Of a stretch of DNA of 64,000 bases, positions 2,189-37,340 are shown piece by piece; the first letter of the stretch is position 1; each line of letters starts with the position of its first letter. The notes under the pieces are model-generated. The model saw only the letters and a program-made list of their open reading frames with translations. It was not told the DNA's origin and searched no databases. A program made the translations under genes and the position numbers. The stretch lies in the NCBI RefSeq assembly GCF_054482525.1, contig NZ_CM137006.1, one strand, 5' to 3'.

Positions 2189-3739
2189 ATGAAGAGATCG
2201 ATTTCGTTTCGTCCTACATTGCTCGCCATCGTCCTTGCCACAACAATGCCGGTTGCGCACGCCGCCGTACCGAAAGATATGCTGGTGATCGGTAAAGCTG
2301 CCGATCCACAAACCCTCGACCCGGCGGTGACAATTGATAATAACGACTGGACGGTGACCTACCCGTCTTATCAGCGACTGGTTCAGTACAAAACGGACGG
2401 TGATAAAGGCTCAACCGACGTTGAAGGCGATCTGGCAAGTAGCTGGAAAGCGTCTGACGATCAAAAAGAGTGGACGTTCACCCTGAAGAACAATGCTAAA
2501 TTTGCCGATGGCGCACCTGTCACTGCCGAAGCAGTAAAACTCTCTTTTGAGCGGTTACTAAAAATCGGCCAGGGGCCAGCAGAAGCATTTCCCAAAGATT
2601 TAAAGATTGATGCTCCCGACGAACATACGGTGAAGTTTACCCTTAGCCAGCCATTCGCACCGTTCCTCTATACGCTGGCGAATGACGGTGCATCCATTAT
2701 CAATCCGGCGGTCTTAAAGGAGCATGCGGCGGATGATGCCCGTGGTTTCCTCGCGCAAAATACCGCTGGCTCCGGACCGTTTATGCTGAAAAGCTGGCAA
2801 AAAGGTCAGCAATTAGTTCTGGTGCCAAATCCGCATTACCCCGGCAATAAACCGAACTTCAAACGGGTATCGGTAAAAATTATCGGTGAAAGTGCCTCCC
2901 GTCGCCTGCAGCTCTCCCGTGGCGACATTGACATTGCCGATGCGCTGCCGGTGGATCAACTCAACGCACTGAAGCAGGAAAACAAAGTCAACGTGGCAGA
3001 GTATCCGTCACTGCGCGTCACCTATCTGTATCTGAATAACAGCAAAGCGCCACTTAATCAGGCGGATCTGCGTCGGGCCATTTCCTGGTCTACCGATTAT
3101 CAGGGAATGGTTAACGGCATTCTGAGTGGTAACGGAAAACAAATGCGCGGCCCGATTCCGGAAGGCATGTGGGGATACGATGCGACGGCAATGCAATACA
3201 ACCATGACGAAACGAAAGCCAAAGCCGAATGGGATAAAGTGACGAGCAAACCCACCAGCCTGACGTTTCTCTACTCCGATAACGACCCGAACTGGGAACC
3301 GATCGCTCTGGCGACACAATCCAGTCTCAACAAGCTGGGCATCAATGTGAAGCTGGAAAAACTGGCGAACGCCACCATGCGCGACAGAGTGGGTAAAGGT
3401 GATTACGACATTGCGATTGGCAACTGGAGTCCGGATTTTGCCGACCCGTATATGTTTATGAATTACTGGTTTGAGTCAGACAAAAAAGGTCTGCCGGGTA
3501 ACCGCTCGTTCTATGAAAACAGTGAGGTCGATAAGTTACTGCGCAATGCGCTAGCGACCACCGACCAGACGCAGCGTACCCGGGACTACCAGCAGGCACA
3601 GAAAATCGTCATTGATGACGCTGCTTATGTGTACCTGTTCCAGAAAAACTACCAACTGGCGATGAACAAAGAGGTGAAAGGCTTTGTGTTCAATCCCATG
3701 CTGGAACAGGTCTTCAATATCAATACCATGAGTAAATAA
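2189..3739 (+). CDS. ddpA: periplasmic dipeptide-binding protein of ABC transporter
   Basis: ORF 2054..3739; chosen start is the ATG giving MKRSISFRPTLLAIVLATTMPVAHA (signal peptide) with AGGAAA RBS; family 5 solute-binding fold. Confidence 0.9.
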   Translation: MKRSISFRPTLLAIVLATTMPVAHAAVPKDMLVIGKAADPQTLDPAVTIDNNDWTVTYPSYQRLVQYKTDGDKGSTDVEGDLASSWKASDDQKEWTFTLKNNAKFADGAPVTAEAVKLSFERLLKIGQGPAEAFPKDLKIDAPDEHTVKFTLSQPFAPFLYTLANDGASIINPAVLKEHAADDARGFLAQNTAGSGPFMLKSWQKGQQLVLVPNPHYPGNKPNFKRVSVKIIGESASRRLQLSRGDIDIADALPVDQLNALKQENKVNVAEYPSLRVTYLYLNNSKAPLNQADLRRAISWSTDYQGMVNGILSGNGKQMRGPIPEGMWGYDATAMQYNHDETKAKAEWDKVTSKPTSLTFLYSDNDPNWEPIALATQSSLNKLGINVKLEKLANATMRDRVGKGDYDIAIGNWSPDFADPYMFMNYWFESDKKGLPGNRSFYENSEVDKLLRNALATTDQTQRTRDYQQAQKIVIDDAAYVYLFQKNYQLAMNKEVKGFVFNPMLEQVFNINTMSK

Positions 3740-3740
3740 C

Positions 3741-4763
3741 GTGACCTTCTGGAGTATTTTACGCCAACGCTGCTGGGGGCTGGTGCTCGTGGTGGCGGGC
3801 GTCTGTGTGATTACGTTTATTATCTCGCACCTGATCCCCGGCGATCCGGCGCGGTTACTGGCGGGTGACCGCGCCAGCGATGCTATCGTGGATAATATTC
3901 GCCAGCAACTGGGACTGGACCAGCCACTGTACGTACAGTTTTACCGCTACGTCAGCGACCTGTTTCAGGGTGACCTGGGAACATCCATTCGTACCGGGCG
4001 TCCGGTGCTGGAAGAGTTGCGCATATTTTTCCCGGCGACGCTGGAACTGGCTTTTTGTGCCCTGCTGCTGGCACTCCTGATTGGCATCCCGCTGGGCATA
4101 CTCTCTGCAGTCTGGCGAAATCGCTGGCTGGATCATCTGGTGCGAATAATGGCCATTACCGGAATCTCCACACCTGCGTTCTGGCTTGGGCTGGGTGTCA
4201 TTGTGCTGTTTTATGGTCATCTGCAAATTCTTCCCGGCGGCGGAAGGCTTGATGACTGGCTGGATCCACCAACGCACGTTACCGGCTTTTATCTGCTCGA
4301 TGCGCTGCTTGAAGGTAACGGTGAAGTCTTCTTCAATGCGCTGCAACATCTCATCTTACCGACATTAACGCTGGCGTTCGTTCACCTGGGGATTGTCGCT
4401 CGCCAGATCCGCTCAGCTATGCTGGAACAATTGAGTGAAGATTACATTCGTACCGCCCGGGCCAGCGGCTTGCCCGGCTGGTATATCGTTTTATGTTATG
4501 CGCTACCCAATGCGTTGATCCCCTCGATTACCGTATTGGGACTGGCGCTGGGCGATTTGTTGTATGGCGCAGTGCTCACCGAAACCGTTTTTGCCTGGCC
4601 CGGAATGGGTGCATGGGTAGTAACATCAATACAGGCGCTCGACTTCCCGGCAGTGATGGGCTTTGCCGTCGTGGTTTCGTTTGCTTATGTGCTGGTCAAC
4701 CTGGTGGTGGATTTGCTCTATTTGTGGATTGATCCGCGTATCGGACGTGGAGGTGGTGAATGA
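3741..4763 (+). CDS. ddpB: ABC transporter permease
   Basis: 340 aa hydrophobic ORF, GTG start 2 nt after ddpA stop; DppB-like. Confidence 0.9.
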   Translation: MTFWSILRQRCWGLVLVVAGVCVITFIISHLIPGDPARLLAGDRASDAIVDNIRQQLGLDQPLYVQFYRYVSDLFQGDLGTSIRTGRPVLEELRIFFPATLELAFCALLLALLIGIPLGILSAVWRNRWLDHLVRIMAITGISTPAFWLGLGVIVLFYGHLQILPGGGRLDDWLDPPTHVTGFYLLDALLEGNGEVFFNALQHLILPTLTLAFVHLGIVARQIRSAMLEQLSEDYIRTARASGLPGWYIVLCYALPNALIPSITVLGLALGDLLYGAVLTETVFAWPGMGAWVVTSIQALDFPAVMGFAVVVSFAYVLVNLVVDLLYLWIDPRIGRGGGE

Positions 4764-5656
4764 TGCTAAGCGAGGAAACGTCCGCCGTACGCCCAGCAAA
4801 ACAAACGCGATTTAACCGTGCAAAACTGGTATGGATGCTGAAAGGCAGTCCGCTCACCGTGACCGGCGCAGTCATCATTGTATTAATGCTACTGATGATG
4901 ATTTTTTCACCGTGGCTGGCGACGCATGATCCCAACGCCATTGATTTAACCGCCCGCCTTTTGCCGCCTTCTGCGGCGCACTGGTTTGGCACCGATGAAG
5001 TGGGACGCGATCTGTTTAGCCGCGTACTGGTCGGCAGTCAGCAATCAATTCTCGCCGGATTAGTGGTGGTCGCCATTGCGGGTATGATGGGTTCGCTACT
5101 CGGGTGTCTATCCGGTGTGCTTGGCGGACGCGCAGACGCCATCATCATGCGCATCATGGACATTATGCTGTCGATTCCTTCGCTGGTGCTGACAATGGCG
5201 CTGGCTGCCGCACTTGGACCGAGTTTGTTTAACGCCATGCTGGCGATTGCTATTGTGCGAATTCCCTTTTATGTGCGCCTGGCGCGGGGGCAAACATTAG
5301 TTGTTCGCCAGTACACTTACGTTCAGGCGGCGAAAACCTTTGGTGCGTCGCGTTGGCATCTGATCAATTGGCATATTTTACGTAACTCCCTGCCGCCGCT
5401 GATTGTGCAGGCATCGCTGGATATCGGTAGCGCGATTTTAATGGCCGCCACGTTGGGATTTATTGGCCTGGGTGCTCAACAACCGAGTGCTGAATGGGGG
5501 GCGATGGTGGCGAATGGTCGCAACTATGTGCTCGATCAATGGTGGTATTGCGCATTTCCGGGGGCAGCGATTTTGCTTACCGCCGTCGGGTTCAATCTCT
5601 TTGGTGATGGTATTCGCGATCTGCTTGACCCGAAAGCAGGAGGAAAGCAGTCATGA
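4760..5656 (+). CDS. ddpC: ABC transporter permease
   Basis: 298 aa ORF overlapping ddpB stop by 4 nt; DppC-like membrane protein. Confidence 0.9.
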   Translation: MMLSEETSAVRPAKQTRFNRAKLVWMLKGSPLTVTGAVIIVLMLLMMIFSPWLATHDPNAIDLTARLLPPSAAHWFGTDEVGRDLFSRVLVGSQQSILAGLVVVAIAGMMGSLLGCLSGVLGGRADAIIMRIMDIMLSIPSLVLTMALAAALGPSLFNAMLAIAIVRIPFYVRLARGQTLVVRQYTYVQAAKTFGASRWHLINWHILRNSLPPLIVQASLDIGSAILMAATLGFIGLGAQQPSAEWGAMVANGRNYVLDQWWYCAFPGAAILLTAVGFNLFGDGIRDLLDPKAGGKQS

Positions 5657-6639
5657 CCCAACCCGTTCTGGACATTCAACAGCTGCATTTGAGTTTCCCC
5701 GGTTTTAACGGCGACGTTCACGCGCTCAACAATGTGTCCTTGCAGATTAACCGCGGTGAAATTGTCGGTCTGGTGGGAGAATCCGGCTCGGGTAAATCAG
5801 TCACTGCAATGTTGATTATGCGTCTGTTACCGACGGGCAGTTATTGCGTACATCGGGGACATATTTCACTGCTGGGAGAAGATGTTCTTAACGCGCAGGA
5901 AAAACAGCTTCGTCAGTGGCGCGGCGCACGAGTGGCGATGATCTTTCAGGAACCGATGACCGCCCTCAATCCGACACGTCGAATAGGTCTTCAGATGATG
6001 GACGTGATCCGCCATCATCAACCAATAAGTCGTCGGGAAGCCAGAGCTAAAGCGATTGCCCTGCTGGAAGAGATGCAAATCCCGGATGCCGTGGAAGTTA
6101 TGTCGCGCTATCCGTTTGAGCTTTCAGGTGGTATGCGCCAGCGGGTAATGATTGCGCTGGCATTCTCCTGCGAGCCGCAATTGATTATTGCCGACGAACC
6201 GACTACGGCGCTGGACGTCACGGTACAGTTGCAGGTACTGCGTCTGCTTAAACATAAAGCCCGCGCCAGTGGAACTGCGGTACTGTTCATCAGCCATGAT
6301 ATGGCCGTGGTGTCGCAACTGTGCGATAGCGTTTACGTGATGTATGCCGGAAGCGTGATTGAGAGCGGCGTGACGGCAGACGTTATCCATCATCCCCGGC
6401 ATCCGTATACCATTGGTTTGCTGCAATGCGCACCGGAACATGGAATACCGCGCCAGCCATTACCCGCCATTCCAGGGACGGTACCAAACCTCACCCATTT
6501 GCCTGACGGCTGCGCTTTTCGCGATCGTTGCTATGCGGCAGGTGCACAGTGTGAAAACGTCCCGGCGCTGACAGCGTGTGGTGACAACAACCACAGCTGC
6601 GCCTGTTGGTATCCTCAGCAGGAGGTCATTAGTGTCTGA
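5653..6639 (+). CDS. ddpD: ABC transporter ATP-binding protein
   Basis: Walker A GESGSGKS and LSGGMRQR signature in translation; 4 nt overlap with ddpC. Confidence 0.9.
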   Translation: MTQPVLDIQQLHLSFPGFNGDVHALNNVSLQINRGEIVGLVGESGSGKSVTAMLIMRLLPTGSYCVHRGHISLLGEDVLNAQEKQLRQWRGARVAMIFQEPMTALNPTRRIGLQMMDVIRHHQPISRREARAKAIALLEEMQIPDAVEVMSRYPFELSGGMRQRVMIALAFSCEPQLIIADEPTTALDVTVQLQVLRLLKHKARASGTAVLFISHDMAVVSQLCDSVYVMYAGSVIESGVTADVIHHPRHPYTIGLLQCAPEHGIPRQPLPAIPGTVPNLTHLPDGCAFRDRCYAAGAQCENVPALTACGDNNHSCACWYPQQEVISV

Positions 6640-7558
6640 CACGTTATTAACGTTACGCGACGTCCATATCAATTTCCCGGCCCGAAAAAACTGGCTTGGT
6701 AAAACTACGGAACATGTTCATGCCATCAATGGTATTGATTTACAGATCCGTCGTGGTGAAACCTTAGGGATCGTCGGTGAGTCAGGCTGCGGCAAAAGCA
6801 CCCTCGCACAGCTTTTAATGGGTATGCTGCAACCGAGCCACGGGCAGTACATCCGTTCAGGATCACAACGCATTATGCAGATGGTGTTTCAGGACCCGCT
6901 CTCTTCGCTTAATCCACGCTTACCGGTGTGGCGCATCATCACGGAACCGCTCTGGATTGCTAAGCGTAGTAGTGAACAACAGCGGCGAGCGTTGGCAGAG
7001 GAGCTGGCTGTGCAGGTGGGTATTCGTCCGGAGTATCTCGACCGCTTGCCTCATGCGTTTTCCGGCGGGCAGCGGCAACGTATCGCCATTGCCAGAGCAC
7101 TCTCTTCGCAGCCTGACGTGATTGTGCTTGATGAACCAACCTCGGCGCTGGATATCTCCGTGCAGGCGCAGATCCTCAATTTACTGGTAACGCTACAGGA
7201 AAATCGCGAGCTGACTTATGTGTTGATTTCACACAATGTCTCGGTGATACGTCATATGAGCGATCGGGTGGCGGTAATGTATCTCGGACAGATTGTGGAA
7301 CTAGGAGACGCGCAACAGGTGCTGACAGCTCCGGCACATCCATACACCCGATTATTGCTGGATTCCCTCCCCGCCATTGATAAACCGCTGGAGGAAGAAT
7401 GGGCATTACGTAAAACGGATCTACCAGGAAACCGCACGTTGCCACAAGGCTGTTTTTTCCGTGAACGTTGCCCTCTGGCAACCGACGGATGTGAAGTCCG
7501 GCAATCATTAACAATAAGGGAGGACGGACGTGAGATCCGGTGCTGGCGGGCGCTGTAG
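6632..7558 (+). CDS. ddpF: ABC transporter ATP-binding protein
   Basis: ORF 6578..7558; GTG at 6632 gives VSDTLLTLRD N-terminus after GGAGG RBS; Walker A GESGCGKST, signature FSGGQRQR. Confidence 0.85.
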   Translation: MSDTLLTLRDVHINFPARKNWLGKTTEHVHAINGIDLQIRRGETLGIVGESGCGKSTLAQLLMGMLQPSHGQYIRSGSQRIMQMVFQDPLSSLNPRLPVWRIITEPLWIAKRSSEQQRRALAEELAVQVGIRPEYLDRLPHAFSGGQRQRIAIARALSSQPDVIVLDEPTSALDISVQAQILNLLVTLQENRELTYVLISHNVSVIRHMSDRVAVMYLGQIVELGDAQQVLTAPAHPYTRLLLDSLPAIDKPLEEEWALRKTDLPGNRTLPQGCFFRERCPLATDGCEVRQSLTIREDGREIRCWRAL

Positions 7559-7572
7559 GACGCGGCATCCGG

Positions 7573-8484
7573 CTATTGCATGTCTGCGGAAACGTTATGC
7601 GTCATAGTTTTTTTTAACGTTTCCATCAACGCCTGCGCCGCAGTAGAAAGCTTATGGTGTGACGAACGCAGTACGCCTACTCGTCGCTCAATCACTGGAT
7701 TATCCAGTTCCAGACACACTGCGCCCAGTTCGCTCATCTGCCTGCGGCACAGCGCAGGCACAGCGCTTCCTCCCAAACCGTTTGCCACCAGCCGCCCAAC
7801 CGTAACCAGTTGATGGCTTTCCAGCGCCACTTCCAGTTGCGTTCCACTTTGTGCCAACTGCTCCTCCAGCATCAACCTGACGGCTGACGGTCGCTGGAGG
7901 GTGATAAAATCGAGCGTCAGCAAATCCCGCCAACTCACGCGTTGCCGATTTGCCAGTCGTGAATCGGCTGGAACAATAGCGACAAACCGATCCACGCCCA
8001 GTGGGGTAAAATGCACATGGCCGCAATAGTCAGGTTCAAAGGCAATACCCATCTCCACACGCCCTTCGCTCACCATTTCGATCACCTGCTCATTCACCAC
8101 ATCGTGCACGGTGACATTAATCCCTGAATAACAATCGCGGAAGGTTTTCAGCACCGGAGGCAGAACGTTGGCTGCAAATGACGGCATCGCTGCCACCGAG
8201 ACTTTGCCCCGCCTGAGCGTGAATCGCTGACGCATGGCCTCCTCAGTGTTATCCCAGTCAGCCAGCAAAGGCCGTGCCATCGACAATAGCGTTTCCCCCT
8301 CCTGGGTTAATGTCACTTTTCGCGTAGTACGCAGCAGTAAAGCGCCCCCTAAGGCATCTTCCAGTCCTTTAATGGCAAGACTTAGCGCAGGCTGCGACAT
8401 ATTCAGCCGTTCACTGGCATGGGCAAAGTTCAGAGTGTGAGCTACCGCTAAAAACGCGCGTAACTGTTTGATGCTCATTTTCAT
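7573..8484 (-). CDS. LysR-family transcriptional regulator
   Basis: 303 aa; N-terminal HTH (LRAFLAVAHTLNFAHASERLNMSQPALSLAIKGLE) typical of LTTRs; divergent from the downstream catabolic operon. Confidence 0.85.
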   Translation of the reverse strand: MKMSIKQLRAFLAVAHTLNFAHASERLNMSQPALSLAIKGLEDALGGALLLRTTRKVTLTQEGETLLSMARPLLADWDNTEEAMRQRFTLRRGKVSVAAMPSFAANVLPPVLKTFRDCYSGINVTVHDVVNEQVIEMVSEGRVEMGIAFEPDYCGHVHFTPLGVDRFVAIVPADSRLANRQRVSWRDLLTLDFITLQRPSAVRLMLEEQLAQSGTQLEVALESHQLVTVGRLVANGLGGSAVPALCRRQMSELGAVCLELDNPVIERRVGVLRSSHHKLSTAAQALMETLKKTMTHNVSADMQ

Positions 8485-8625
8485 CTGGCACTCCGTTAAC
8501 CTACTGAATACATTTAATTAACATTATATTGATAAATAATACAAATGAATGAGTCACAAATTTAAAATTAACAAATCATTTTTTGCCCTTAATGATGTTG
8601 AAAAGGACAACTGGAGGGCAACTGT
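8485..8625. promoter_or_regulatory. divergent promoter/operator region between LysR regulator and CoA-transferase operon
   Basis: 141 bp AT-rich intergenic region with TTAATTAA palindrome and A/T runs; classic LTTR divergent arrangement. Confidence 0.4.
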
Positions 8626-9333
8626 ATGGCTGGGTTGGATAAACGGGTCGCTACGTATCACGAGGCGCTTGAAGGACTTACCAATGAGATGACGATTCTG
8701 GCAGGAGGTTTTGGCCTGTGCGGCATCCCGGAGAATCTGATTGCTGAAGTTCGCCACCGTGGAGTAACCGGATTAACGGTGGTTTCCAATAACTGTGGCG
8801 TAGATGGTTTTGGACTGGGTGTACTACTGGAAAGCCGACAGATCCGTAAAGTCGTCGCTTCTTATGTTGGCGAGAATGCTTTGTTTGAAAAACAGGTGCT
8901 TAACGGCGAACTGGAGGCGATTCTCACACCACAAGGAACCCTGGCAGAACAACTGCGCGCAGGCGGCGCGGGTATCCCGGCGTTCTTTACTGCCACCGGT
9001 TACGGTACTCCCGTTGCCGAAGGGAAAGAAGTCCGCGAATTCAACGGTCGCCCGTACATCATGGAACAGGCTATCACCGGTGATTTTGCCCTGGTCAAAG
9101 GCTGGAAAGCCGACTGGTACGGCAACGTGATTTATCGTCATACCGCGCAAAACTTCAACCCACTGATGGCGGCTGCCGGAAAAATCACCGTGGTGGAAGT
9201 GGAAGAAATAGTGCCACCTGGTGAACTTGATCCTGCCGCTATCCATACCCCGGGGATTTTTGTTAATCGCGTCATTCAGGGGCAATTTGAAAAACGCATT
9301 GAACAACGCACCCTTAGCCGCAAAGGAGCCTGA
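8626..9333 (+). CDS. 3-oxoacid CoA-transferase subunit A (AtoD/ScoA-like)
   Basis: 235 aa; translation has the family N-terminus ([20 protein letters not shown]) and glycine-rich core. Confidence 0.8.
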
Positions 9334-9335
9334 CC

Positions 9336-9992
9336 ATGTTAACCCGTGAACAAATGGCGATGCGAGTCGCCCGCGAATTGCGCGATGGCTATTACGTCAA
9401 TCTCGGCATTGGTATCCCGACCCTGGTGGCAAACTACATTCCTGACGGGATGGATGTGATGTTGCAGTCAGAAAACGGTTTGCTGGGAATGGGCGCATTT
9501 CCTACGGAAGACGAACTGGACGCCGACATGATTAATGCCGGTAAACAAACCGTTACCGCGCGGAAAGGCGCGGCAATTTTCGATTCGGCGCAATCATTCG
9601 CCATGATCCGTGGCGGTCATGTGGATCTGACTGTACTTGGCGCATTTGAAGTGGATGTGAATGGCAACATTGCCTCATGGATGATCCCCGGCAAGATGGT
9701 TAAAGGCATGGGCGGTGCCATGGATCTGGTTGCCGGTGCCGAGAATATTATTGTGGTAATGACCCACGCCTCCAAATCCGGCGAATCCAAACTGCTTCCT
9801 GACTGTACCCTTCCGTTGACCGGCGCCGGATGCATCAAACGCGTCTTAACCGACCTTGCTCTGCTGGAAATTGCTGACGGAGCTTTCATTCTGCGCGAGC
9901 GCGCGCCGGGAATCAGCGTTGCGGAAATCATCGCCAAAACCGCCGGTAAGTTGTTTGTGCCGGAACATGTCCCGGAAATGCAATTCAACTGA
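9336..9992 (+). CDS. 3-oxoacid CoA-transferase subunit B (AtoA/ScoB-like)
   Basis: 218 aa; starts 3 nt after subunit A stop; family B translation (GMGGAMDLVAGA). Confidence 0.8.
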   Translation: MLTREQMAMRVARELRDGYYVNLGIGIPTLVANYIPDGMDVMLQSENGLLGMGAFPTEDELDADMINAGKQTVTARKGAAIFDSAQSFAMIRGGHVDLTVLGAFEVDVNGNIASWMIPGKMVKGMGGAMDLVAGAENIIVVMTHASKSGESKLLPDCTLPLTGAGCIKRVLTDLALLEIADGAFILRERAPGISVAEIIAKTAGKLFVPEHVPEMQFN

Positions 9993-10001
9993 GGAATCAC
10001 C

Positions 10002-11207
10002 ATGCAGGACGTTGTTATTGTTGCCGCTACGCGCACACCGATTGGCTGTTTTCATGGCGCTCTCGCCCCACTTTCTGCGGTTGATCTCGGCGCTGCCACC
10101 ATCCGTTCATTGCTGGAGAAAACAGCACTTGCAGCAGAACAGATCGACGAAGTGATTTTTGGTCAGGTCCTGACTGCCGGAAGCGGACAAAATCCGGCAC
10201 GGCAATCGGCGCTCAAAGCCGGGTTAAGCCACGATACACCCGCCGTTACCATCAACCTGGTATGTGGTTCCGGTCTGAAAGCAGTACACCAGGCCGTACA
10301 GGCGATCCGTTGCGGTGATGCACAGATAATTATCGCAGGTGGCCAGGAAAGCATGAGTAACGCGCCCTATTTTATTGATGGCGCACGGGCAGGTTTACGC
10401 CTCGGGCATACCAGCATGAAAGACAGCGTGGTGCATGACGGACTATGGGACGCTTTCAATGATTACCACATGGGCATTACTGCAGAAAACCTGGCGCAAA
10501 AATATGCCATCAGTCGCGAGCGACAGGACACATTCGCGCTACGTTCTCAGCAAAAAGCCGCTGCCGCAATGGAAGCCGGGCGCTTTGCAGACGAAATTAC
10601 TCCGGTCAGCGTACCACAAGGTAAAAAACCACCACGCAGGGTAAATACCGACGAACAACCACGTTCCGGGACGCAACTGGAAAAACTAGCACAACTGAAA
10701 CCGGCCTTTCTTCCGGGGGCGGGAAGCGTCACCGCAGGAAATGCTTCTTCCATCAATGATGGTGCCGCCGCAGTCATGTTAATGCGCGCCAGCAAAGCTG
10801 CCGAACTTGGCCTCCCAGTGCTGGCTCGGGTGGCTGGTTATGCCGTTTCTGGCGTCGATCCTGCCTTTATGGGCATTGGTCCGGTCGCCGCTACCCGCGA
10901 ATGTCTTAAGCGTTGCGGATGGACGCTGGAAGATATTGATCTTATTGAAGCCAACGAGGCTTTCGCAGCGCAGGCGCTGGCCGTTGGCGACGAACTGAAC
11001 TGGGATTGCGACAAAGTGAATGTTAACGGCGGCGCAATCGCACTTGGGCATCCTATTGGCGCTTCCGGTTGCCGCATTCTGGTCACTCTCATTTATGAAA
11101 TGGCGCGACGTAATGCGCAAAAAGGGCTGGCGACGCTGTGCGTCGGTGGCGGTCAGGGCGTGGCGCTGACACTGGAAAGAACCACAGGAGAACACCATGC
11201 AAACTGA
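10002..11207 (+). CDS. acetyl-CoA C-acetyltransferase (thiolase II)
   Basis: 401 aa; thiolase translation with active-site regions ([21 protein letters not shown]). Confidence 0.85.
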
Positions 11208-12120
11208 ACAATTTGCGGTACTGGGCGCCGGATTGATGGGCGTGGGGATTGCCACTCATTTCGCCCGCTTTGGTCATGATATCTGGCTGTACGATACCGA
11301 GCAGAGCCGGATTGCAGAAATCCACGTAGTTGCAGGCGGAATTCTTGATGAGCTGATTAGCTGCGAACAGTTTACTGCCCCGGAAAAAGAGAATGTGCTT
11401 AAACGTCTGCACGGCACGACTTCTCTTGCAGACATCGCCGACTCGCAACTACTGATTGAGGCGATCCCGGAGCGACTTGAACTAAAACACGCATTATATA
11501 CCGAGCTTGAAACGCTTATTTCTCCTGAGGCCATTGTCGCCAGCAATACCAGCGGTCTGCCGCCCGATGATCTGGCCGCGAAGATGCGCTACCCGCAACG
11601 ACTGCTGATCGCCCATTTCTGGCATCCGCCGCACTTCATTCCACTTGTGGAGATTATCCCCGGCAGCGTTACCGAGCCAAAGCATTTGCACTGGCTGCAG
11701 CACTTGCTTGTGTCACTGCAACTGGAAGCAGTGTTGCTGGATCGCGCTGCGCCAGGATTTGTCGGCAACCGTCTGCAATTTGCACTGTTGCGTGAAGCCC
11801 TGCATATCGTAAAAAGCGGCATCGCCAGTGCAGAAGTGGTGGATCAGGTGATGCGCGCCTCGCTTGGGCGACGTTATGCCATGGTCGGCCCGCTGGAGGC
11901 CGCCGACATGACCGGACTTTCGACGGTGCAGGATATTTGTCGCCATCTGCTCCCTGAACTAGCGACTGGCAGCGACATGATGTCATTAGTTGCCGAAAAA
12001 GTGGAACGTGGAGACATCGGCGTACGTAGCGGTCAGGGATTTTACTGCTGGGATGAATCGCGGAAGCAGTACATCCAGCAGCGTCGGGAACATCAACTTC
12101 GCTTCGCCCTTAAACCATAA
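11197..12120 (+). CDS. 3-hydroxyacyl-CoA dehydrogenase family protein (NAD-binding)
   Basis: 307 aa; N-terminal Rossmann motif [12 protein letters not shown]; overlaps thiolase stop by 11 nt. Confidence 0.7.
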
Positions 12121-12165
12121 CTTCTCTCGCTGTACCCACTATAACAACGATATTGAGGAGTCCCG

Positions 12166-13557
12166 ATGAGTGTATTAATCGCCCTTGCCGCGCTTGGGCT
12201 GCTAATGCTGGCAGCCTATCGCGGATACAGCGTTATCCTTTTTGCCCCCATCGCAGCATTAGGCGCTGTTCTTGTCACCGATCCGGGGGCCGTTGGCCCA
12301 GCATTTACCGGCCTGTTCATGGAAAAAATGGTCGGCTTCGTGAAATTGTACTTCCCGGTGTTTCTGCTCGGGGCCGTGTTCGGAAAACTGATTGAACTTT
12401 CAGGATTTTCTCGTTCGATTGTCGCTGCTGCAATCAACATTCTCGGCCGGCGGCATGCGATTCCGGTGATTGTGCTGGTATGTGCATTACTCACCTATGG
12501 CGGAGTGTCGCTGTTTGTGGTGGCATTTGCCGTTTATCCGTTCGCGGCTGAACTGTTCCGCCAGAGTAACATCCCAAAACGACTTATACCGGCAACGGTG
12601 GCCCTGGGGGCATTCTCTTTTACTATGGACGCTCTGCCCGGCACGCCACAAATTCAGAACATTATTCCTACCAGTTTCTTTGGCACCAACGCCTGGGCCG
12701 CGCCGTGGCTGGGGCTTATTGGTTCACTGTTTATCATTGCCGTCGGGCTTATCTATCTGGAGCGGCAGCGTCGTAAAGCGCAGGCAAAAAATGAAGGTTA
12801 CGGCACAGAGTTACTTAATGAACCTGAAACACCAGATAACATCAATTTACCGAACCCACTCATTGCGATTTCACCATTGATTCTGGTGGGGCTGTTGAAC
12901 TTGTTGTTTACCTGGTGGATCCCTGTTTGGTACGGTGCGAGCCACCAACTGGAGTTGCCGGGACTTGCCGCCCCGATTACCACAGATGTCGCCAAAATCA
13001 CCGCAATCTGGGCCGTCGAAGCTGCGCTCATTGCCGGAATTTTGCTGGTAGTGATTTTTGGATATCGCAATATTCATGGAAGACTGGCAGAAGGAAGCCG
13101 TACAGCGGTAGGCGGCGCAATTCTGGCTGCGATGAACACCGCCTCAGAATATGGCTTCGGTGCGGTTATCGCCGCCCTACCCGGTTTTCTGGTGCTCTCA
13201 AAGGCGCTGGCCGCCATTCCTGATCCATTACTCAACGAAGCCATCAGCATCACCACACTTGCCGGAATTACCGGTTCAGCGTCCGGCGGGATGAGTATTG
13301 CTCTTGCGGCGATGTCCGACACTTTTATTGCCGCTGCGCACGCTGCCAATATTCCACTGGAAGTTTTTCACCGCGTGGCATCTATGGCCAGTGGCGGCAT
13401 GGATACATTGCCCCATAACGGCGCTGTGATCACCCTGCTGGCAATTACTGGGCTGAGTCACCGTCAGGCTTACGGCGGCATCTTCGCAATTACGATCATT
13501 AAAAGTCTGGCCGTGCTGTTTATCATCGGCGTGTACTACACCACCGGCATTGTCTAA
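12166..13557 (+). CDS. multi-pass permease, probably GntP-family hydroxy-acid (3-hydroxybutyrate) transporter
   Basis: 463 aa, highly hydrophobic with central charged loop; family assignment by resemblance only. Confidence 0.55.
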   Translation: MSVLIALAALGLLMLAAYRGYSVILFAPIAALGAVLVTDPGAVGPAFTGLFMEKMVGFVKLYFPVFLLGAVFGKLIELSGFSRSIVAAAINILGRRHAIPVIVLVCALLTYGGVSLFVVAFAVYPFAAELFRQSNIPKRLIPATVALGAFSFTMDALPGTPQIQNIIPTSFFGTNAWAAPWLGLIGSLFIIAVGLIYLERQRRKAQAKNEGYGTELLNEPETPDNINLPNPLIAISPLILVGLLNLLFTWWIPVWYGASHQLELPGLAAPITTDVAKITAIWAVEAALIAGILLVVIFGYRNIHGRLAEGSRTAVGGAILAAMNTASEYGFGAVIAALPGFLVLSKALAAIPDPLLNEAISITTLAGITGSASGGMSIALAAMSDTFIAAAHAANIPLEVFHRVASMASGGMDTLPHNGAVITLLAITGLSHRQAYGGIFAITIIKSLAVLFIIGVYYTTGIV

Positions 13558-13568
13558 GGAAAATCATC

Positions 13569-14339
13569 ATGAATTTACAAGGTAAAACTGCGCTGGTGAC
13601 GGGGTCCACCAGCGGTATCGGACTCGGTATTGCTCAGACACTGGCAAACGCTGGCGCGCAAGTGATCCTCAACGGCTTCGGTGATGTTGACGCGGCAATC
13701 AATGCGGTTTCTCGTATGGGTAAAACGCCTGGCTATCATGAGGCAGACCTCAGCGATGAATCGCAAATTATCAACATGATGGCCTACGCACGGCGGGAAT
13801 TTGGCGGTGTGGACATTCTGGTGAATAACGCCGGGATCCAGTATGTCTCCCCGGTTGAATCTTTCCCTGTAGAAAAATGGAACGCCATTATCGCTATCAA
13901 TCTCTCTTCTGTCTTTCACACCACGCGTCTGGCACTGCCAGAAATGCGCACTCGTAACTGGGGTCGGATCATTAACATTGCCTCTGTGCATGGGCTGGTA
14001 GCGTCGAAAGACAAATCAGCTTATGTTGCGGCAAAACATGGCGTGGTGGGACTCACAAAGACCATTGCTCTGGAAACTGCGCAGACGGGTATTACCTGCA
14101 ACGCGCTCTGCCCTGGCTGGGTGCTGACGCCGCTGGTACAACAGCAGATTGATAAGCGCATTGCGCAAGGCGAAGATGCGGAAAGCGCGCGTGACGCCTT
14201 ACTGGCAGAAAAACAGCCTTCTCGTGAATTTGTGACTCCGCAACAACTGGGTGAACTGGCGCTGTTTCTCTGTTCGGATGCGGCAGCACAAGTGCGTGGG
14301 GTGGCGTGGAATATGGATGGCGGTTGGGTAGCGCAGTAA
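13569..14339 (+). CDS. bdhA: D-3-hydroxybutyrate dehydrogenase (SDR family)
   Basis: 256 aa; TGSTSGIGLGIA cofactor motif, NNAGIQ, YVAAKHG catalytic motif; close to remembered BdhA sequences. Confidence 0.8.
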   Translation: MNLQGKTALVTGSTSGIGLGIAQTLANAGAQVILNGFGDVDAAINAVSRMGKTPGYHEADLSDESQIINMMAYARREFGGVDILVNNAGIQYVSPVESFPVEKWNAIIAINLSSVFHTTRLALPEMRTRNWGRIINIASVHGLVASKDKSAYVAAKHGVVGLTKTIALETAQTGITCNALCPGWVLTPLVQQQIDKRIAQGEDAESARDALLAEKQPSREFVTPQQLGELALFLCSDAAAQVRGVAWNMDGGWVAQ

Positions 14340-19083: not shown

Positions 19084-19737
19084 TTATATCCCTTCTTCAC
19101 TCTCTTTTTTCGCTTCTGCCTTCTCGATTTCACGATACCAGCGCGGATGGTGTTTCTTCGCCCAGCGACGGCTCACCTTCCCTTCGATCATCCCTTTAAT
19201 CGATCCTTTCACCCAGAATGCCATATACATATGGATCAGGATGGCGTGGATCAGGATGATACCCGCAGCCGCGTGAATCAGCAGGCTGTAGCGAACAACC
19301 TGCATCGGGAAGTACTGCGCAAAGTACGGACGCCAGATAATCACCCCGGTCACCAACAGCACGAAAATCATGCTCATGATCGACCAGAACATCATCTTTT
19401 GCCCGGCGTTGTACTTACCGACATCCGCCACTTTGTGCTCATTGCCTTTTAATACTTCGACAATGTTCAACAGCCACGGAATATCTTTCTTATCCGGGAT
19501 GTTGTGATGCACAAAACGCACAAACATAAACATCAGCGCGACGAAAATCGCAATGCCGAAGAACGGGTGCAAAATGCGCCCCATCTGCGGCGTACCGAAG
19601 GTTTGCGTCAGCCATTGCAGCGTCGGGAAGAAGAACGAAATCCCGGACAGCGCCACCAGGAAGAAGCAAATCACCACGGTCCAGTGACAGGCGCGATCAA
19701 TAAATTTGGTGCGCACAATCATTTTCGACTTACTCAT
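19084..19737 (-). CDS. fdnI: formate dehydrogenase-N gamma subunit (cytochrome b556)
   Basis: 217 aa from [19 protein letters not shown]...; four TM helices with His ligands. Confidence 0.9.
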
Positions 19738-33600: not shown

Positions 33601-34427
33601 AGGCACTGGGCGAGATCACCGGACGCGAACATACCCATCTGGCGCTGCACAAAGAGGACGAGAAGATTCGCTTTCGCGATATTCAGGCGCAGCCACGTAA
33701 AATTATCTCCAGCCCCACATGGTCCGGTCTGGAAAGCGATCACGTTTCCTATAACGCGGGATACACCAACGTTCATGAGTTAATTCCGTGGCGCACGCTG
33801 TCGGGACGCCAGCAGCTTTATCAGGATCATCCGTGGATGCGTGCTTTTGGTGAAAGCCTGGTGGCTTATCGCCCGCCTATCGACACCCGTAGCGTCAGTG
33901 AAATGCGCCAGATACCGCCAAACGGCTTCCCGGAAAAAGCACTTAACTTCCTGACGCCGCACCAGAAATGGGGCATTCACTCAACCTACAGTGAAAACCT
34001 GCTAATGCTGACGCTCTCTCGCGGTGGACCGATTGTCTGGATTAGCGAAACCGATGCCCGTGAACTGACCATTGTCGATAACGACTGGGTGGAAGTGTTT
34101 AACGCCAACGGCGCGCTGACTGCCCGCGCGGTGGTCAGCCAACGTGTACCGCCGGGTATGACCATGATGTATCACGCTCAGGAACGCATTATGAATATTC
34201 CTGGTTCGGAAGTAACTGGCATGCGCGGCGGCATTCATAACTCGGTCACCCGCGTTTGTCCGAAACCAACGCATATGATTGGCGGTTACGCGCAGCTGGC
34301 CTGGGGCTTTAACTACTACGGCACCGTCGGCTCGAACCGCGATGAATTCATCATGATCCGCAAGATGAAGAACGTTAACTGGCTGGATGATGAAGGTCGC
34401 GATCAGGTACAGGAGGCGAAAAAATGA
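30687..34427 (+). CDS. narZ: respiratory nitrate reductase Z alpha subunit
   Basis: ORF 30564..34427; ATG at 30687 after GGAGCAGGAG gives 1246 aa MSKLLDRFRYFKQKGD...; molybdopterin oxidoreductase. Confidence 0.9.
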   Translation: MSKLLDRFRYFKQKGDTFADGYGQVMHSNRDWEDSYRQRWQFDKIVRSTHGVNCTGSCSWKIYVKNGLVTWEIQQTDYPRTRPDLPNHEPRGCPRGASYSWYLYSANRLKYPLIRKRLIELWREALKQHSDPVLAWASIMNDPQKCLSYKQVRGRGGFIRSNWQELNQLIAAANVWTIKTYGPDRVAGFSPIPAMSMVSYAAGTRYLSLLGGTCLSFYDWYCDLPPASPMTWGEQTDVPESADWYNSSYIIAWGSNVPQTRTPDAHFFTEVRYKGTKTIAITPDYSEVAKLCDQWLAPKQGTDSALAMAMGHVILKEFHLDNPSDYFINYCRRYSDMPMLVMLEPRDDGSYVPGRMVRASDLVDGLGESNNPQWKTVAVNTAGELVVPNGSIGFRWGEKGKWNLESIAAGTETELSLTLLGQHDAVAGVAFPYFGGIENPHFRSVKHDPVLVRQLPVKNLTLADGSTCPVVSVYDLVLANYGLDRGLEDENSAKDYAEIKPYTPAWGEQITGVPRQYIETIAREFADTAHKTHGRSMIILGAGVNHWYHMDMNYRGMINMLIFCGCVGQSGGGWAHYVGQEKLRPQTGWLPLAFALDWNRPPRQMNSTSFFYNHSSQWRYEKVSAQELLSPLADASKYSGHLIDFNVRAERMGWLPSAPQLGRNPLGIKAEADKAGLSPTEFTAQALKSGDLRMACEQPDSGSNHPRNLFVWRSNLLGSSGKGHEYMQKYLLGTESGIQGQELGASDGIKPEEVEWQTAAIEGKLDLLVTLDFRMSSTCLFSDIVLPTATWYEKDDMNTSDMHPFIHPLSAAVDPAWESRSDWEIYKGIAKAFSQVCVGHLGKETDVVLQPLLHDSPAELSQPCEVLDWRKGECDLIPGKTAPNIVAVERDYPATYERFTSLGPLMDKLGNGGKGISWNTQDEIDFLGKLNYTKREGPAQGRPLIDTAIDASEVILALAPETNGHVAVKAWQALGEITGREHTHLALHKEDEKIRFRDIQAQPRKIISSPTWSGLESDHVSYNAGYTNVHELIPWRTLSGRQQLYQDHPWMRAFGESLVAYRPPIDTRSVSEMRQIPPNGFPEKALNFLTPHQKWGIHSTYSENLLMLTLSRGGPIVWISETDARELTIVDNDWVEVFNANGALTARAVVSQRVPPGMTMMYHAQERIMNIPGSEVTGMRGGIHNSVTRVCPKPTHMIGGYAQLAWGFNYYGTVGSNRDEFIMIRKMKNVNWLDDEGRDQVQEAKK

Positions 34428-35968
34428 AAATACGTTCGCAAGTCGGCATGGTGCTTAACCTCGATAAATGTATCGGCTGCCATACCTGTTCGGTGACCTG
34501 TAAAAACGTCTGGACCGGACGCGAAGGCATGGAGTACGCATGGTTTAACAACGTCGAAACCAAACCGGGCATTGGTTATCCGAAAAACTGGGAAGATCAG
34601 GAAGAGTGGCAAGGCGGCTGGGTGCGTGATGTGAATGGCAAGATCCGCCCGCGTCTGGGCAGCAAGATGGGCGTAATAACCAAAATCTTCGCCAACCCGG
34701 TGGTGCCGCAGATTGATGATTACTACGAACCTTTCACCTTCGACTACGAACATTTGCATAGCGCACCGGAAGGCAAACATATCCCTACTGCTCGCCCGCG
34801 TTCACTGATTGACGGCAAACGGATGGACAAAGTGATCTGGGGGCCAAACTGGGAAGAATTGTTGGGCGGCGAATTCGAAAAACGCGCCCGTGACCGCAAC
34901 TTCGAGGCCATGCAAAAGGAGATGTACGGGCAGTTTGAAAACACCTTCATGATGTACCTGCCGCGCCTGTGCGAACACTGCCTCAATCCCAGTTGCGTGG
35001 CAACCTGCCCAAGCGGCGCTATCTACAAACGCGAAGAAGACGGCATTGTGCTGATCGATCAGGATAAATGCCGTGGCTGGCGTTTGTGCATTAGCGGTTG
35101 TCCGTACAAAAAAATCTACTTCAACTGGAAAAGCGGCAAGTCAGAAAAATGTATCTTCTGTTACCCACGAATTGAGTCAGGCCAACCCACCGTGTGCTCA
35201 GAAACCTGCGTGGGTCGCATCCGGTATCTGGGCGTGCTGCTTTACGACGCCGACCGCATCGAGGAAGCGGCGAGCACCGAGCGCGAAGTTGACCTCTATG
35301 AACGCCAGTGCGAAGTGTTCCTCGATCCGCTCGATCCCTCAGTGATCGAAGAAGCCCTGAAACAAGGTATTCCACAAAACGTGATTGAAGCTGCTCAGCG
35401 TTCGCCAGTCTACAAAATGGCGATGGACTGGAAACTGGCGTTACCGCTGCACCCTGAATACCGCACCCTGCCGATGGTCTGGTACGTTCCTCCGCTGTCA
35501 CCGATTCAGTCTTACGCTGATGCGGGCGGCTTGCCGAAAAGCGAAGGCGTGCTGCCCGCCATCGAAAGCCTGCGTATTCCGGTGCAATATCTCGCCAATA
35601 TGTTGAGTGCCGGCGATACCGGTCCGGTACTGCGGGCGCTGAAACGGATGATGGCGATGCGCCACTATATGCGTTCACAAACCGTGGAAGGCGTTACCGA
35701 TACCCGCGCCATTGACGAAGTAGGCCTGAGCGTCGCCCAGGTCGAAGAGATGTATCGCTACTTCGCCATTGCCAACTATGAAGACCGTTTTGTCATTCCA
35801 ACCAGTCATCGGGAAATGGCGGGCGATGCCTTCGCAGAACGCAATGGCTGCGGTTTTACCTTTGGCGACGGTTGCCACGGCTCGGACAGCAAATTCAACC
35901 TGTTCAACAGTAGCCGTATCGATGCCATCAACATCACCGAAGTGCGCGACAAAGCGGAGGGCGAATAA
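34424..35968 (+). CDS. narY: nitrate reductase Z beta subunit (Fe-S)
   Basis: 514 aa; Cys clusters CIGCHTCSVTC, CEHCLNPSCVATCPSGA; 4 nt overlap with narZ. Confidence 0.9.
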   Translation: MKIRSQVGMVLNLDKCIGCHTCSVTCKNVWTGREGMEYAWFNNVETKPGIGYPKNWEDQEEWQGGWVRDVNGKIRPRLGSKMGVITKIFANPVVPQIDDYYEPFTFDYEHLHSAPEGKHIPTARPRSLIDGKRMDKVIWGPNWEELLGGEFEKRARDRNFEAMQKEMYGQFENTFMMYLPRLCEHCLNPSCVATCPSGAIYKREEDGIVLIDQDKCRGWRLCISGCPYKKIYFNWKSGKSEKCIFCYPRIESGQPTVCSETCVGRIRYLGVLLYDADRIEEAASTEREVDLYERQCEVFLDPLDPSVIEEALKQGIPQNVIEAAQRSPVYKMAMDWKLALPLHPEYRTLPMVWYVPPLSPIQSYADAGGLPKSEGVLPAIESLRIPVQYLANMLSAGDTGPVLRALKRMMAMRHYMRSQTVEGVTDTRAIDEVGLSVAQVEEMYRYFAIANYEDRFVIPTSHREMAGDAFAERNGCGFTFGDGCHGSDSKFNLFNSSRIDAINITEVRDKAEGE

Positions 35969-36663
35969 TGCAGATCCTCAAAGTGATCGGCCTGTTGATG
36001 GAGTATCCGGACGAGCTGTTATGGGAATGTAAGGAGGATGCGCTGGCGTTGATCCGCCGCGACGCACCGATGCTTACGGATTTTACCCGCAACCTGCTTA
36101 ACGCGCCGCTGCTGGATAAACAGGCCGAATGGTGCGAAGTGTTTGACCGTGGACGTACCACATCGCTGCTGCTGTTCGAACATGTTCATGCCGAGTCCCG
36201 TGATCGCGGCCAGGCAATGGTGGACCTGCTGGCGGAGTATGAAAAGGTCGGCCTGCAGTTGGATTGTCGAGAACTGCCCGATTATCTACCGCTGTATCTG
36301 GAGTACTTAAGCGTACTGCCGGACGATCAGGCGAAAGAAGGCTTGCTCAACGTTGCGCCGATCCTCGCCCTGCTTGGCGGACGCTTAAAACAACGCGAGG
36401 CATCGTGGTACGCGTTATTTGACACCCTGTTGCAACTGGCAGGAAGTACACTTTCAAGTGACAGTGTCACAAAACAGGTGAACAGTGAGGAGCGCGATGA
36501 CACCCGCCAGGCACTGGATGCGGTGTGGGAAGAGGAACAGGTGAAGTTTATTGAAGATAACGCCACGGCGTGTGACAGCTCGCCGCTTAATCAATATCAG
36601 CGACGCTTTAGCCAGGATGTCGCGCCGCAGTATGTCGACATCAGTGCGGGAGGTGGGAAATGA
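35968..36663 (+). CDS. narW: nitrate reductase Z assembly chaperone
   Basis: 231 aa NarJ-like; start overlaps narY stop. Confidence 0.85.
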
Positions 36664-37340
36664 TTCAGTATCTGAACGTCTTTTTTTATGATATCTACCC
36701 GTACATTTGTGCGACAGTGTTTTTCCTCGGCAGCTGGCTGCGCTACGACTACGGGCAGTATACCTGGCGCGCCTCCTCGAGTCAGATGCTCGATAAACGC
36801 GGGATGGTGATATGGTCGAATCTGTTCCATATCGGCATTTTGGGGATTTTCTTCGGGCACCTGTTCGGCATGTTAACGCCGCACTGGATGTACGCGTGGT
36901 TTCTGCCGGTGGCGGTAAAACAGCAGATGGCGATGGTGCTCGGTGGTATTTGCGGTGTATTGACGTTGATTGGCGGCGCAGGACTGCTGTGGCGCAGGCT
37001 GACTAATCAGCGTGTGCGTGCAACTTCCACTACGCCGGATATTATCATCATGAGCATTTTGCTGATCCAGTGTCTGCTGGGGCTAAGTACCATACCGTTT
37101 TCAGCACAGTATCCTGATGGTAGCGAAATGATGAAGCTGGTGGGTTGGGCGCAAAGCATTGTCACTTTCCGTGGTGGATCGTCAGAAATGCTTAACGGCG
37201 TAGCGTTCGTTTTCCGCCTGCATCTGGTATTGGGAATGACCATCTTCCTGCTCTTCCCGTTCACCCGACTGGTGCATGTGTGGAGCGCGCCGTTTGAGTA
37301 CTTTACTCGTCGGTATCAGATTGTGCGTTCGCGGCGATAA
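36660..37340 (+). CDS. narV: nitrate reductase Z gamma subunit (cytochrome b)
   Basis: 226 aa membrane protein; 4 nt overlap with narW. Confidence 0.9.

Follow-up and report, generated by a model that had tools for sequence, protein, structure and literature searches.

The ddp and narZ operons of Escherichia coli are built from genes whose start codons lie on, or directly beside, the stop codon of the preceding gene, which raises the question of whether translation of the neighbouring genes is coupled and whether the overlaps can decide between alternative start sites, in particular between the GTG start of ddpF and a longer upstream open reading frame. Both operons are contained in the window, a stretch of 64,000 nucleotides from contig NZ_CM137006.1 (assembly GCF_054482525.1), which belongs to the E. 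coli chromosome and displays 23 mismatches over 64 kb relative to strain 19KM1776. The ddpXABCDF genes specify a D,D-dipeptide ABC importer of the Dpp/Opp type, and narUZYWV specifies nitrate reductase Z and its chaperone. With considerable confidence, the junctions can be regarded as standard ones of two operons, each devoted to a multi-subunit complex, in which the starts are as annotated and coupling by termination-reinitiation is likely.

The overlaps reported in the first-pass annotation were all recovered when the junctions were read directly and their coordinates were scripted, including the 4-nt overlaps of ddpB/ddpC and ddpC/ddpD, the 8-nt overlap of ddpD/ddpF with its GTG start (GTGTCTGA, 6632-6639), and those of narZ/narY, narY/narW and narW/narV (34424-36663), which measure 4, 1 and 4 nt, respectively. 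All six are same-strand junctions in the range of stop/start overlap or near-contact (-8 to about +10), as is ddpA/ddpB with a gap of +1. The overlaps exceed chance, since all six flagged junctions overlap as compared with 4 of the 30 other co-directional pairs in the window (Fisher p = 1e-4), and a start-like triplet at -4 or -1 was found at five of the six flagged junctions versus 4 of 41 gene ends outside overlapping pairs (p = 5e-4), these p-values being only indicative because the samples are small and the junctions of one operon are not independent. The features of both operons are compiled in Table 1.

Table 1. Coordinates of the genes, junctions, Shine-Dalgarno (SD) sites and rejected extensions in the ddp and narZ operons (positions in the window).
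Feature	Position	Strand	Remarks
ddpA stop/ddpB start junction, TAAcGTG	3737-3743	+	1-base gap; ddpB GTG without SD (dG -2.2 kcal/mol)
ddpB, ABC transporter permease, 340 aa, GTG start	3741-4763	+	stop TGA 4761-4763
ddpC SD (GGAGG), within ddpB 3' end	4749-4753	+	-10.6 kcal/mol
ddpB/ddpC overlap ATGA	4760-4763	+	ddpC ATG 4760-4762; second ATG 4763-4765 would give 1 nt (TGATG)
ddpC, ABC transporter permease, 298 aa as annotated	4760-5656	+	stop TGA 5654-5656
ddpD SD (AGGAGGA), within ddpC 3' end	5638-5644	+	-10.3 kcal/mol
ddpC/ddpD overlap ATGA	5653-5656	+	ddpD ATG 5653-5655; -4 or -1 in 10/10 enterobacterial orthologues
ddpD, ABC transporter ATPase, 328 aa	5653-6639	+	stop TGA 6637-6639
ddpF upstream extension, 18 codons, rejected	6578-6631	+	ddpD coding sequence in another frame
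ddpF SD (AGGAGG), inside ddpD	6620-6625	+	6-nt spacing to GTG, -11.0 kcal/mol
ddpD/ddpF overlap GTGTCTGA, 8 nt	6632-6639	+	ATGnCTGA in 13 orthologous loci
ddpF, ABC transporter ATPase, 308 aa, GTG 6632-6634	6632-7558	+	annotation and K-12 N-terminal peptide
narZ upstream extension, 41 codons, rejected	30564-30686	+	narU 3' end and narU-narZ spacer
narZ SD region (GGAGCAGGAG)	30670-30679	+	-6.9 kcal/mol
narZ, nitrate reductase Z alpha subunit, 1246 aa	30687-34427	+	stop TGA 34425-34427
narZ/narY overlap ATGA	34424-34427	+	narY ATG 34424-34426; SD AGGAGG 34411-34416, -10.3 kcal/mol
narY, beta subunit, 514 aa; PGAP label narH	34424-35968	+	stop TAA 35966-35968
narY/narW junction TAATG, one shared base (35968)	35966-35970	+	narW ATG 35968-35970; SD GGAGGG 35956-35961, -10.0 kcal/mol
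narW, NarJ-type assembly chaperone, 231 aa	35968-36663	+	stop TGA 36661-36663
narW/narV overlap ATGA	36660-36663	+	narV ATG 36660-36662; SD GGGAGGTGGG 36648-36657, -11.6 kcal/mol
narV, gamma subunit, 226 aa; PGAP label narI	36660-37340	+	annotation and coordinates

The first-pass annotation had taken the overlaps as support for the chosen start sites. The start sites stand, on evidence that is independent of the overlaps, while the overlap argument itself is partly circular, because the overlap follows from the start that was chosen. The independent evidence is provided in part by the SD sites, which for each overlapping downstream gene lie within the 3' part of the preceding gene and reach -10.0 to -11.6 kcal/mol at the overlapping starts. 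Competing in-frame starts in the vicinity of the annotated ones have values from +1.2 to -5.4, and the only alternative start with a strong SD (-12.1) is a TTG located 27 codons inside narW. The annotated starts are correct for ddpF, as revealed by SD strength, orthologues and a published peptide, and for narZ, as revealed by homology to the NarG N-terminus; the reference starts of ddpB, ddpC, ddpD, ddpF, narZ, narY, narW and narV were judged sound.

The preference for GTG 6632 of ddpF over the longer reading frame proved well founded. A GTG codon that is decoded as methionine must be an initiation codon. N-terminal proteomics of DdpF, which had been proposed as a check, is already published for K-12, where N-terminomics recovered residues 1-9, MSDTLLTLR, beginning with the annotated GTG (PMC13245402, Tables S1 and S2); this peptide agrees with the N-terminus MSDTLL... 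read from the GTG in the window, and since it begins with methionine at the GTG codon, 6632 initiates ddpF. The support for this N-terminus is one peptide from one study, and the same table lists support from elongation Ribo-seq (REPARATION) but none from Ribo-RET (PMC13245402).

The rejected longer form of DdpF would start at the upstream GTG 6578 or 6581, comprise 325-326 residues and overlap ddpD by about 60 nt, and it has in its favour that the frame is open from 6572 and carries these two in-frame GTGs, the first of which would yield 326 aa versus the 308 aa annotated. Neither GTG, however, possesses an SD (-1.7 kcal/mol), and among the 13 orthologues the 22 codons upstream in the ddpF frame are interrupted by a stop in nine and lack any in-frame start in five. 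The extension is not conserved as protein either, as conservation upstream of ddpF follows the ddpD frame (ACWYPQ.E..V*) rather than the ddpF frame, and E. coli DppF aligns to the long frame only from its residue 18, one residue before codon 6632. Taken together with the methionine of the peptide at codon 6632, SD strength and the orthologues rule out the longer frame from 6578, and initiation at either upstream GTG is extremely improbable. The 8-nt overlap is kept in all 13 orthologous loci, which comprise an Escherichia lineage, four Citrobacter, two Enterobacter, Tatumella, Pluralibacter, Mixta and three MAGs, and the ddpF start codon is ATG in every one of them (13/13). All 39 E. coli genomes sampled have G as the first base of this codon, and the change from ATG to GTG appears to be fixed in E. 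coli.

The start of ddpC is less clear-cut, because the tandem ATGATG at this position means that the ddpB/ddpC overlap could be 1 rather than 4 nt. All 11 sequences compared keep the second ATG, nine have ATG and two GTG as the first codon, and the first base of that first codon coincides with the wobble position of the final Glu or Gln codon of ddpB. Moreover, the SD lies 6 nt from 4760 and 9 nt from 4763, a spacing suitable for either candidate. It is thus a serious possibility, although one we lean against, that ddpC begins at 4763 with a 1-nt overlap (TGATG) and that the first NTG is a by-product of the last ddpB codon and TGA. On the other side, the first ATG was chosen by PGAP and the K-12 annotation alike, and the first codon is a valid start codon in every sequence; dual use of both starts is also possible, as TRAINSPOTTER reports many +1 pairs in other genes.

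The start chosen for narZ (30687) is likewise supported, since residue 42 of the long reading frame aligns with residue 1 of NarG (PDB 1q16), the N-terminus of the alpha subunit being conserved between NarG and NarZ from residue 1. The longer frame (ATG 30564, 1287 aa versus 1246 aa) was rejected because it starts inside narU, lacks an SD and shows NarG homology only from 30687. The narZ start itself overlaps no gene and is situated 94 nt after narU. A gapless search of the narU-narZ spacer with CGTCTTATCAGGCCTAC, which we take to be the REP consensus, detected no REP element at up to two mismatches; the resemblance of the spacer needs a 1-nt deletion, so a REP element is not claimed. A literature search yielded no N-terminal data for NarZ, NarY or Ddp proteins other than DdpF, and ddpB, ddpD, narZ, narY and narH are absent from the entries listed in the TRAINSPOTTER tables, these genes probably not being expressed under the conditions used there.

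At each junction, the downstream start has its SD within the final codons of the gene before it. In the mechanism that we favour, a ribosome terminating on or beside that start would already be placed there and could re-initiate with the aid of the SD. Such termination-reinitiation would tie the outputs of the subunits together. The junctions share with the overlapping pairs known to be coupled in this way (PMC6728339, PMC10666635, review PMC12548453) the common strand, the distances of -4, -1 and -8, the SD in the upstream 3' end and the heteromeric subunits; no structural difference from them was found except that the -8 class of ddpD/ddpF is less common. Huber et al. (2023, PMC10666635) report that E. 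coli pairs spaced at -8 to +10 nt code for subunits of heteromeric complexes 4.5 times more often than pairs separated by over 20 nt, and that reinitiation is less efficient at -8 overlaps than at shorter overlaps. Literature searches found no coupling experiment for the ddp or narZ genes and nothing relevant on ddpF translation; for these genes we infer both the coupling itself and its route, be it reinitiation or mRNA unfolding.

Judged by the orthologous sequences compared, the tight junctions are conserved in relatives. Nine of 10 enterobacterial loci keep ddpB/ddpC at -4, ddpB/ddpC and ddpC/ddpD stand at -4 or -1 in 9-10 of 10, and ddpD/ddpF stands at -8 in the 13 loci described above. 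The paralogous narGHJI operon of K-12 contains the same four genes in the same order with overlaps at all three junctions (-4, -4 and -1 for alpha/beta, beta/chaperone and chaperone/gamma, in this order throughout), whereas narZYWV has -4, -1 and -4, meaning that the overlap types are swapped, with 4 nt in narH/narJ versus 1 in narY/narW and 1 nt in narJ/narI versus 4 in narW/narV. The corresponding values are -4, -4 and +24 in Burkholderia, -4, +17 and +7 in Ralstonia, and +12, +9 and +3 in Thermus; four of these five nar operons, narZYWV among them, have -4 at alpha/beta. DdpF and DdpD are homologues of DppF/OppF and DppD/OppD (E-values 1e-71 to 1e-51) in the DppBCDF and OppBCDF structures (PDB 8z1v, 8z21), which are paralogues of Ddp and different transporters.

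Conservation of this kind bears on the view that the overlaps are compact packing without functional coupling, in which free 30S subunits would start each gene at its own strong SD. At least five of the six overlapping starts carry an SD of -10 to -11.6 kcal/mol, enough for independent initiation, and the distances drift among relatives, as seen for the nar chaperone/gamma junction (-4 to +24) and for Thermus. Among native pairs that have been assayed, bioB/bioF was uncoupled despite a 4-nt ATGA overlap and menD/menH was only about 60% coupled (Huber et al. 2019, PMC6728339). The same study, however, reported coupling for 13 of 14 native overlapping pairs tested, including four of five from E. 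coli, and the ddpB/ddpC, ddpC/ddpD and ddpD/ddpF overlaps are maintained across genera. In addition, ddpB, which lacks an SD and starts 1 nt past the ddpA stop, is hard to explain by independent initiation. Packing without coupling is thus considered unlikely. Coupling might alternatively proceed through mRNA unfolding, with a hairpin sequestering the downstream SD or start until the upstream ribosome opens it, and a predicted 8-bp hairpin at about 6602-6622 does pair part of the ddpF SD region. When start-hiding structure was sought by folding seven 100-nt junction windows, none was significantly structured, as 0 of 7 folded significantly better than shuffled sequence (Z -1.24 to +2.21), and this route is held to be more improbable still. 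Termination-reinitiation is retained as the preferred reading.

The ddpA/ddpB junction differs from the others. Among the compared orthologues it was seen only in Escherichia, where the ddpB GTG aligns with the ATG of the orthologues, in which a spacer of 23-87 nt and an SD precede the gene. A hairpin is visible in the ddpA-ddpB spacer of Citrobacter, Tatumella and Pluralibacter, and the junction in the window is unusually unstructured according to predicted mRNA folding. A tentative and somewhat doubtful proposal is that Escherichia lost the spacer and that ddpB is translated only by ribosomes finishing ddpA, which, with the ATG to GTG change of ddpF, could reduce in a lineage-specific manner the amounts of permease and ATPase made per binding protein, by means of coupling alone.

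The overlaps themselves are already known. Overlapping co-directional pairs make up about 15% of all gene pairs in most prokaryotic groups, and the limits picked in the first-pass annotation are exactly those in the PGAP annotation of 19KM1776 and, for the ddp and nar genes, in that of K-12 MG1655. The ddp region is present in 4292 of 5426 E. coli genomes. The narZYWV genes are near-identical to K-12 b1465-b1468, and ddpXABCDF is near-identical to b1483-b1488, with the same gene order, lengths, distances (+13, +1, -4, -4, -8) and GTG starts of ddpB and ddpF, at a sequence divergence of about 1-2%. The junctions have little significance beyond annotation quality and represent more examples of a very common prokaryotic gene arrangement, which might serve as test cases in coupling assays, the most useful being ddpA/ddpB, which lacks an SD, and ddpD/ddpF, whose 8-nt overlap is of a less common kind. 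The ddp neighbourhoods of the window and of K-12 differ on the 3' side of ddpF, where a 6.8-kb accessory cluster is found in this strain and osmC follows directly in K-12.

The first-pass annotation had described six stop/start overlaps in the ddp and narZ operons, all of which were recovered when each junction was read directly in the sequence and its coordinates were then confirmed by script. The starts chosen there are identical, with the same overlaps, in the PGAP annotation of E. coli 19KM1776 and in K-12 MG1655. The window differs from 19KM1776 (NZ_CP151009.1, 666954-730953) at 23 positions, with 0 indels over 64 kb, so that the annotation of the latter carries across base for base, and it includes dosP, ddpXABCDF, an accessory cluster, osmC, bdm, sra, maeA, adhP, fdnGHI, yddG, narU and narZYWV, among others. 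A 5-kb segment taken from around the ddp junctions found matches in 4292 of 5426 complete E. coli genomes. The overlaps and starts, being annotated in RefSeq and K-12, are already known and belong to a textbook class.

Junctions and other features of the window (window coordinates)
Feature	Position	Spacing or length	Sequence
ddpA/ddpB	3737-3743	1-nt gap	TAAcGTG
ddpB/ddpC	4760-4763	4 nt overlap	ATGA
ddpC/ddpD	5653-5656	4 nt overlap	ATGA
ddpD/ddpF	6632-6639	8 nt overlap	GTGTCTGA
narZ/narY	34424-34427	4 nt overlap	ATGA
narY/narW	shared base 35968	1 nt overlap	TAATG
narW/narV	36660-36663	4 nt overlap	ATGA
thiolase/3-hydroxyacyl-CoA dehydrogenase	11197-11207	11 nt overlap	
fdnH/fdnI	19730-19737	8 nt overlap	
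mnaT/ydcZ	58337-58340	4 nt overlap	
ydcV/ydcU	61896-61906	11 nt overlap	
ydcU/ydcT		abutting, 0 nt	
ddpF-osmC cluster	7573-14339	~6.8 kb	
porin and leucine-rich-repeat genes between yddG and narU	25046-28891		
narU-narZ spacer	30593-30686	94 nt	inverted repeat GCCTGA...TCAGGC
cluster of differences in the Rhs core-protein gene	44645-45038	~400 nt	

Overlaps occur in 10 of the 36 co-directional neighbour pairs of the window. All six flagged junctions overlap versus 4 of 30 other co-directional pairs (Fisher p = 1e-4), and a start-like triplet lies on the stop codon, at -4 or -1 (negative distances denoting overlap, positive ones a gap, in nt), in 5/6 flagged junctions versus 4/41 gene ends outside overlapping pairs, statistics that are only indicative owing to the small samples and the non-independence of the junctions. 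The upstream genes of overlapping pairs end in TGA in seven of ten cases and TAA dominates at other gene ends, an excess that is expected because the ATGA overlap forces a TGA stop.

An overlap cannot itself prove a start codon, as it follows from the start chosen. For ddpF, the GTG at 6632 had been preferred to a longer ORF, which does exist, from GTG 6578. Shine-Dalgarno (SD) pairing to the 16S 3' end amounts to -10.0 to -11.6 kcal/mol at all six overlapping starts, and the rival ddpF starts GTG 6578 and GTG 6581 score -1.7 kcal/mol. One scan of representative genomes for DdpF yielded 34 probable orthologous loci, 13 of which (a divergent Escherichia lineage, four Citrobacter, two Enterobacter, Tatumella, Pluralibacter, Mixta and three MAGs) possess a start codon at the position equivalent to 6632 with the ddpD stop 5 nt further on, namely the same 8-nt overlap. 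This codon is ATG in 13/13, a ddpF-frame stop is found within 22 upstream codons in nine, and an upstream in-frame start is absent in five. In the stretch upstream of ddpF, the ddpD frame is the one conserved as protein (ACWYPQ.E..V*), while in distant relatives (Pseudomonas, Mesorhizobium) the ddpD/ddpF overlap is mostly 4 nt instead. The GTG appears to be fixed in E. coli; K-12 ddpF also begins with it, and 39 of 39 fully covered records align from its first base, the sample having been drawn at even intervals from the 4285 E. coli matches in rank order.

It is generally acknowledged that a GTG codon is read as methionine at initiation only. The TRAINSPOTTER N-terminomics of K-12 (NAR 2026, PMC13245402) reported the peptide MSDTLLTLR (residues 1-9) for b1483/ddpF, located at the annotated GTG (1558036-1558038), and its table lists elongation Ribo-seq (REPARATION) support and no Ribo-RET entry for ddpF. 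The initial methionine thus marks the GTG as a start, and the first 18 DdpF residues are the same in the window and K-12. The N-terminal proteomics once proposed as a check on DdpF is therefore available as a published peptide that fits the annotated GTG. The start at 6632 is upheld over the longer ORF, and starts at 6578/6581 are ruled out by the weak SD, the upstream-frame stops in orthologues and the peptide at 6632. Table S2 of the same study contains a second DdpF N-terminus, MLRDVHINFPAR (residues 7-18), assigned to initiation at an ACG six codons past the GTG (PMC13245402); the window carries the same ACG as K-12 at codon 7 (6650-6652).

The longer narZ ORF cited as a rival exists as well, from ATG 30564, and rival narZ starts have SD scores of -2.5 to -4.0 kcal/mol. 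The long ORF was translated and searched against solved structures, whereupon its residue 42 (ATG 30687) aligned with NarG residue 1 in 1q16 (E = 4e-62), and its 41 extra codons consist of the narU end and the intergenic spacer. The start at 30564 is rejected on the weak SD, the position of NarG residue 1 and the narU/spacer origin of the extension. Accordingly, 30687 stands on the NarG alignment, and the overlap argument put forward for it is inapplicable, since the narZ start overlaps no gene. The annotated starts are hence supported by independent, partly experimental evidence. The narU-narZ spacer, 81 nt in K-12, harbors a short inverted repeat that is REP-like in look, and a gapless consensus search for a REP element found no match in it.

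The ddp and narZ junctions follow the layout of a well-studied class, co-directional overlapping gene pairs; of 14 native pairs assayed, 13 showed strict or predominant coupling, four of the five E. coli pairs among them (Huber et al. 2019, PMC6728339). Reinitiation drops steeply with distance, the authors rate -8 overlaps below shorter ones in efficiency, and subunits of heteromeric complexes are 4.5-fold enriched among E. coli pairs spaced -8 to +10 nt (Huber et al. 2023, PMC10666635). Both operons in the window specify complexes of this kind, ddp the DdpBCDF transporter and narZYWV the NarZYV enzyme together with the NarW chaperone. Candidate mechanisms of coupling named in a 2025 review (PMC12548453) are the unfolding of mRNA and scanning by 30S subunits or 70S ribosomes.

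The ddp and narZ genes are probably translationally coupled, and the class match and the complex-encoding operons make SD-assisted termination-reinitiation the most likely mechanism, whereby reinitiation at each junction would be helped by the embedded SD. Strong SDs at the overlapping starts make independent initiation at each of them a possible alternative. Coupling via unfolding of mRNA structure is not specifically supported, because none of the 100-nt windows folded at seven junctions was better than shuffled controls (z -1.24 to +2.21), although a modest hairpin touches the SD at ddpD/F alone.

Junction distances in relatives indicate that tight spacing is general. The ddpB/C distance is -4 in nine of ten enterobacterial loci and 0 in one, and all ten have ddpC/D at -4 or -1. 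For the alpha/beta, beta/chaperone and chaperone/gamma junctions, the distances are -4, -1 and -4 in narZYWV; -4, -4 and -1 in K-12 narGHJI; -4, -4 and +24 in Burkholderia; -4, +17 and +7 in Ralstonia; and +12, +9 and +3 in Thermus. Variation is least at the alpha/beta ATGA overlap, and the other junctions drift in their exact form.

The ddpC start is a tandem ATGATG (4760-4765), whose second ATG is invariant in 11/11 sequences and whose first codon is ATG in nine and GTG in two, its first base being the wobble position of the last ddpB codon. This pattern suggests that ddpB and ddpC may really share a single nucleotide (TGATG) and not four, or that both starts may be in use. Strict dependence on reinitiation is most likely at ddpA/ddpB, where the GTG start lacks an SD (-2.2 kcal/mol). 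The loci of Citrobacter, Enterobacter, Tatumella, Pluralibacter and Mixta have 23-87 nt between the two genes, including an SD, and their ddpB begins with an ATG at the very position of the E. coli GTG, so that the compact form looks derived in Escherichia; a spacer hairpin is visible in Citrobacter, Tatumella and Pluralibacter.

Elsewhere in the window, 18 of the 23 differences from 19KM1776 are bunched in the Rhs core-protein gene, which could reflect local recombination or differences among rhs copies. The ddpF-osmC cluster encodes a LysR regulator, CoA transferase subunits A and B, a thiolase, a 3-hydroxyacyl-CoA dehydrogenase, a GntP permease and a 3-hydroxybutyrate dehydrogenase, and it is regarded as an accessory insertion since osmC directly follows ddpF in K-12, 55 nt apart. 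Between yddG and narU, an intact OmpC-like porin gene and leucine-rich-repeat protein genes occupy the position of yddL, yddK and the yddJ pseudogene in K-12.
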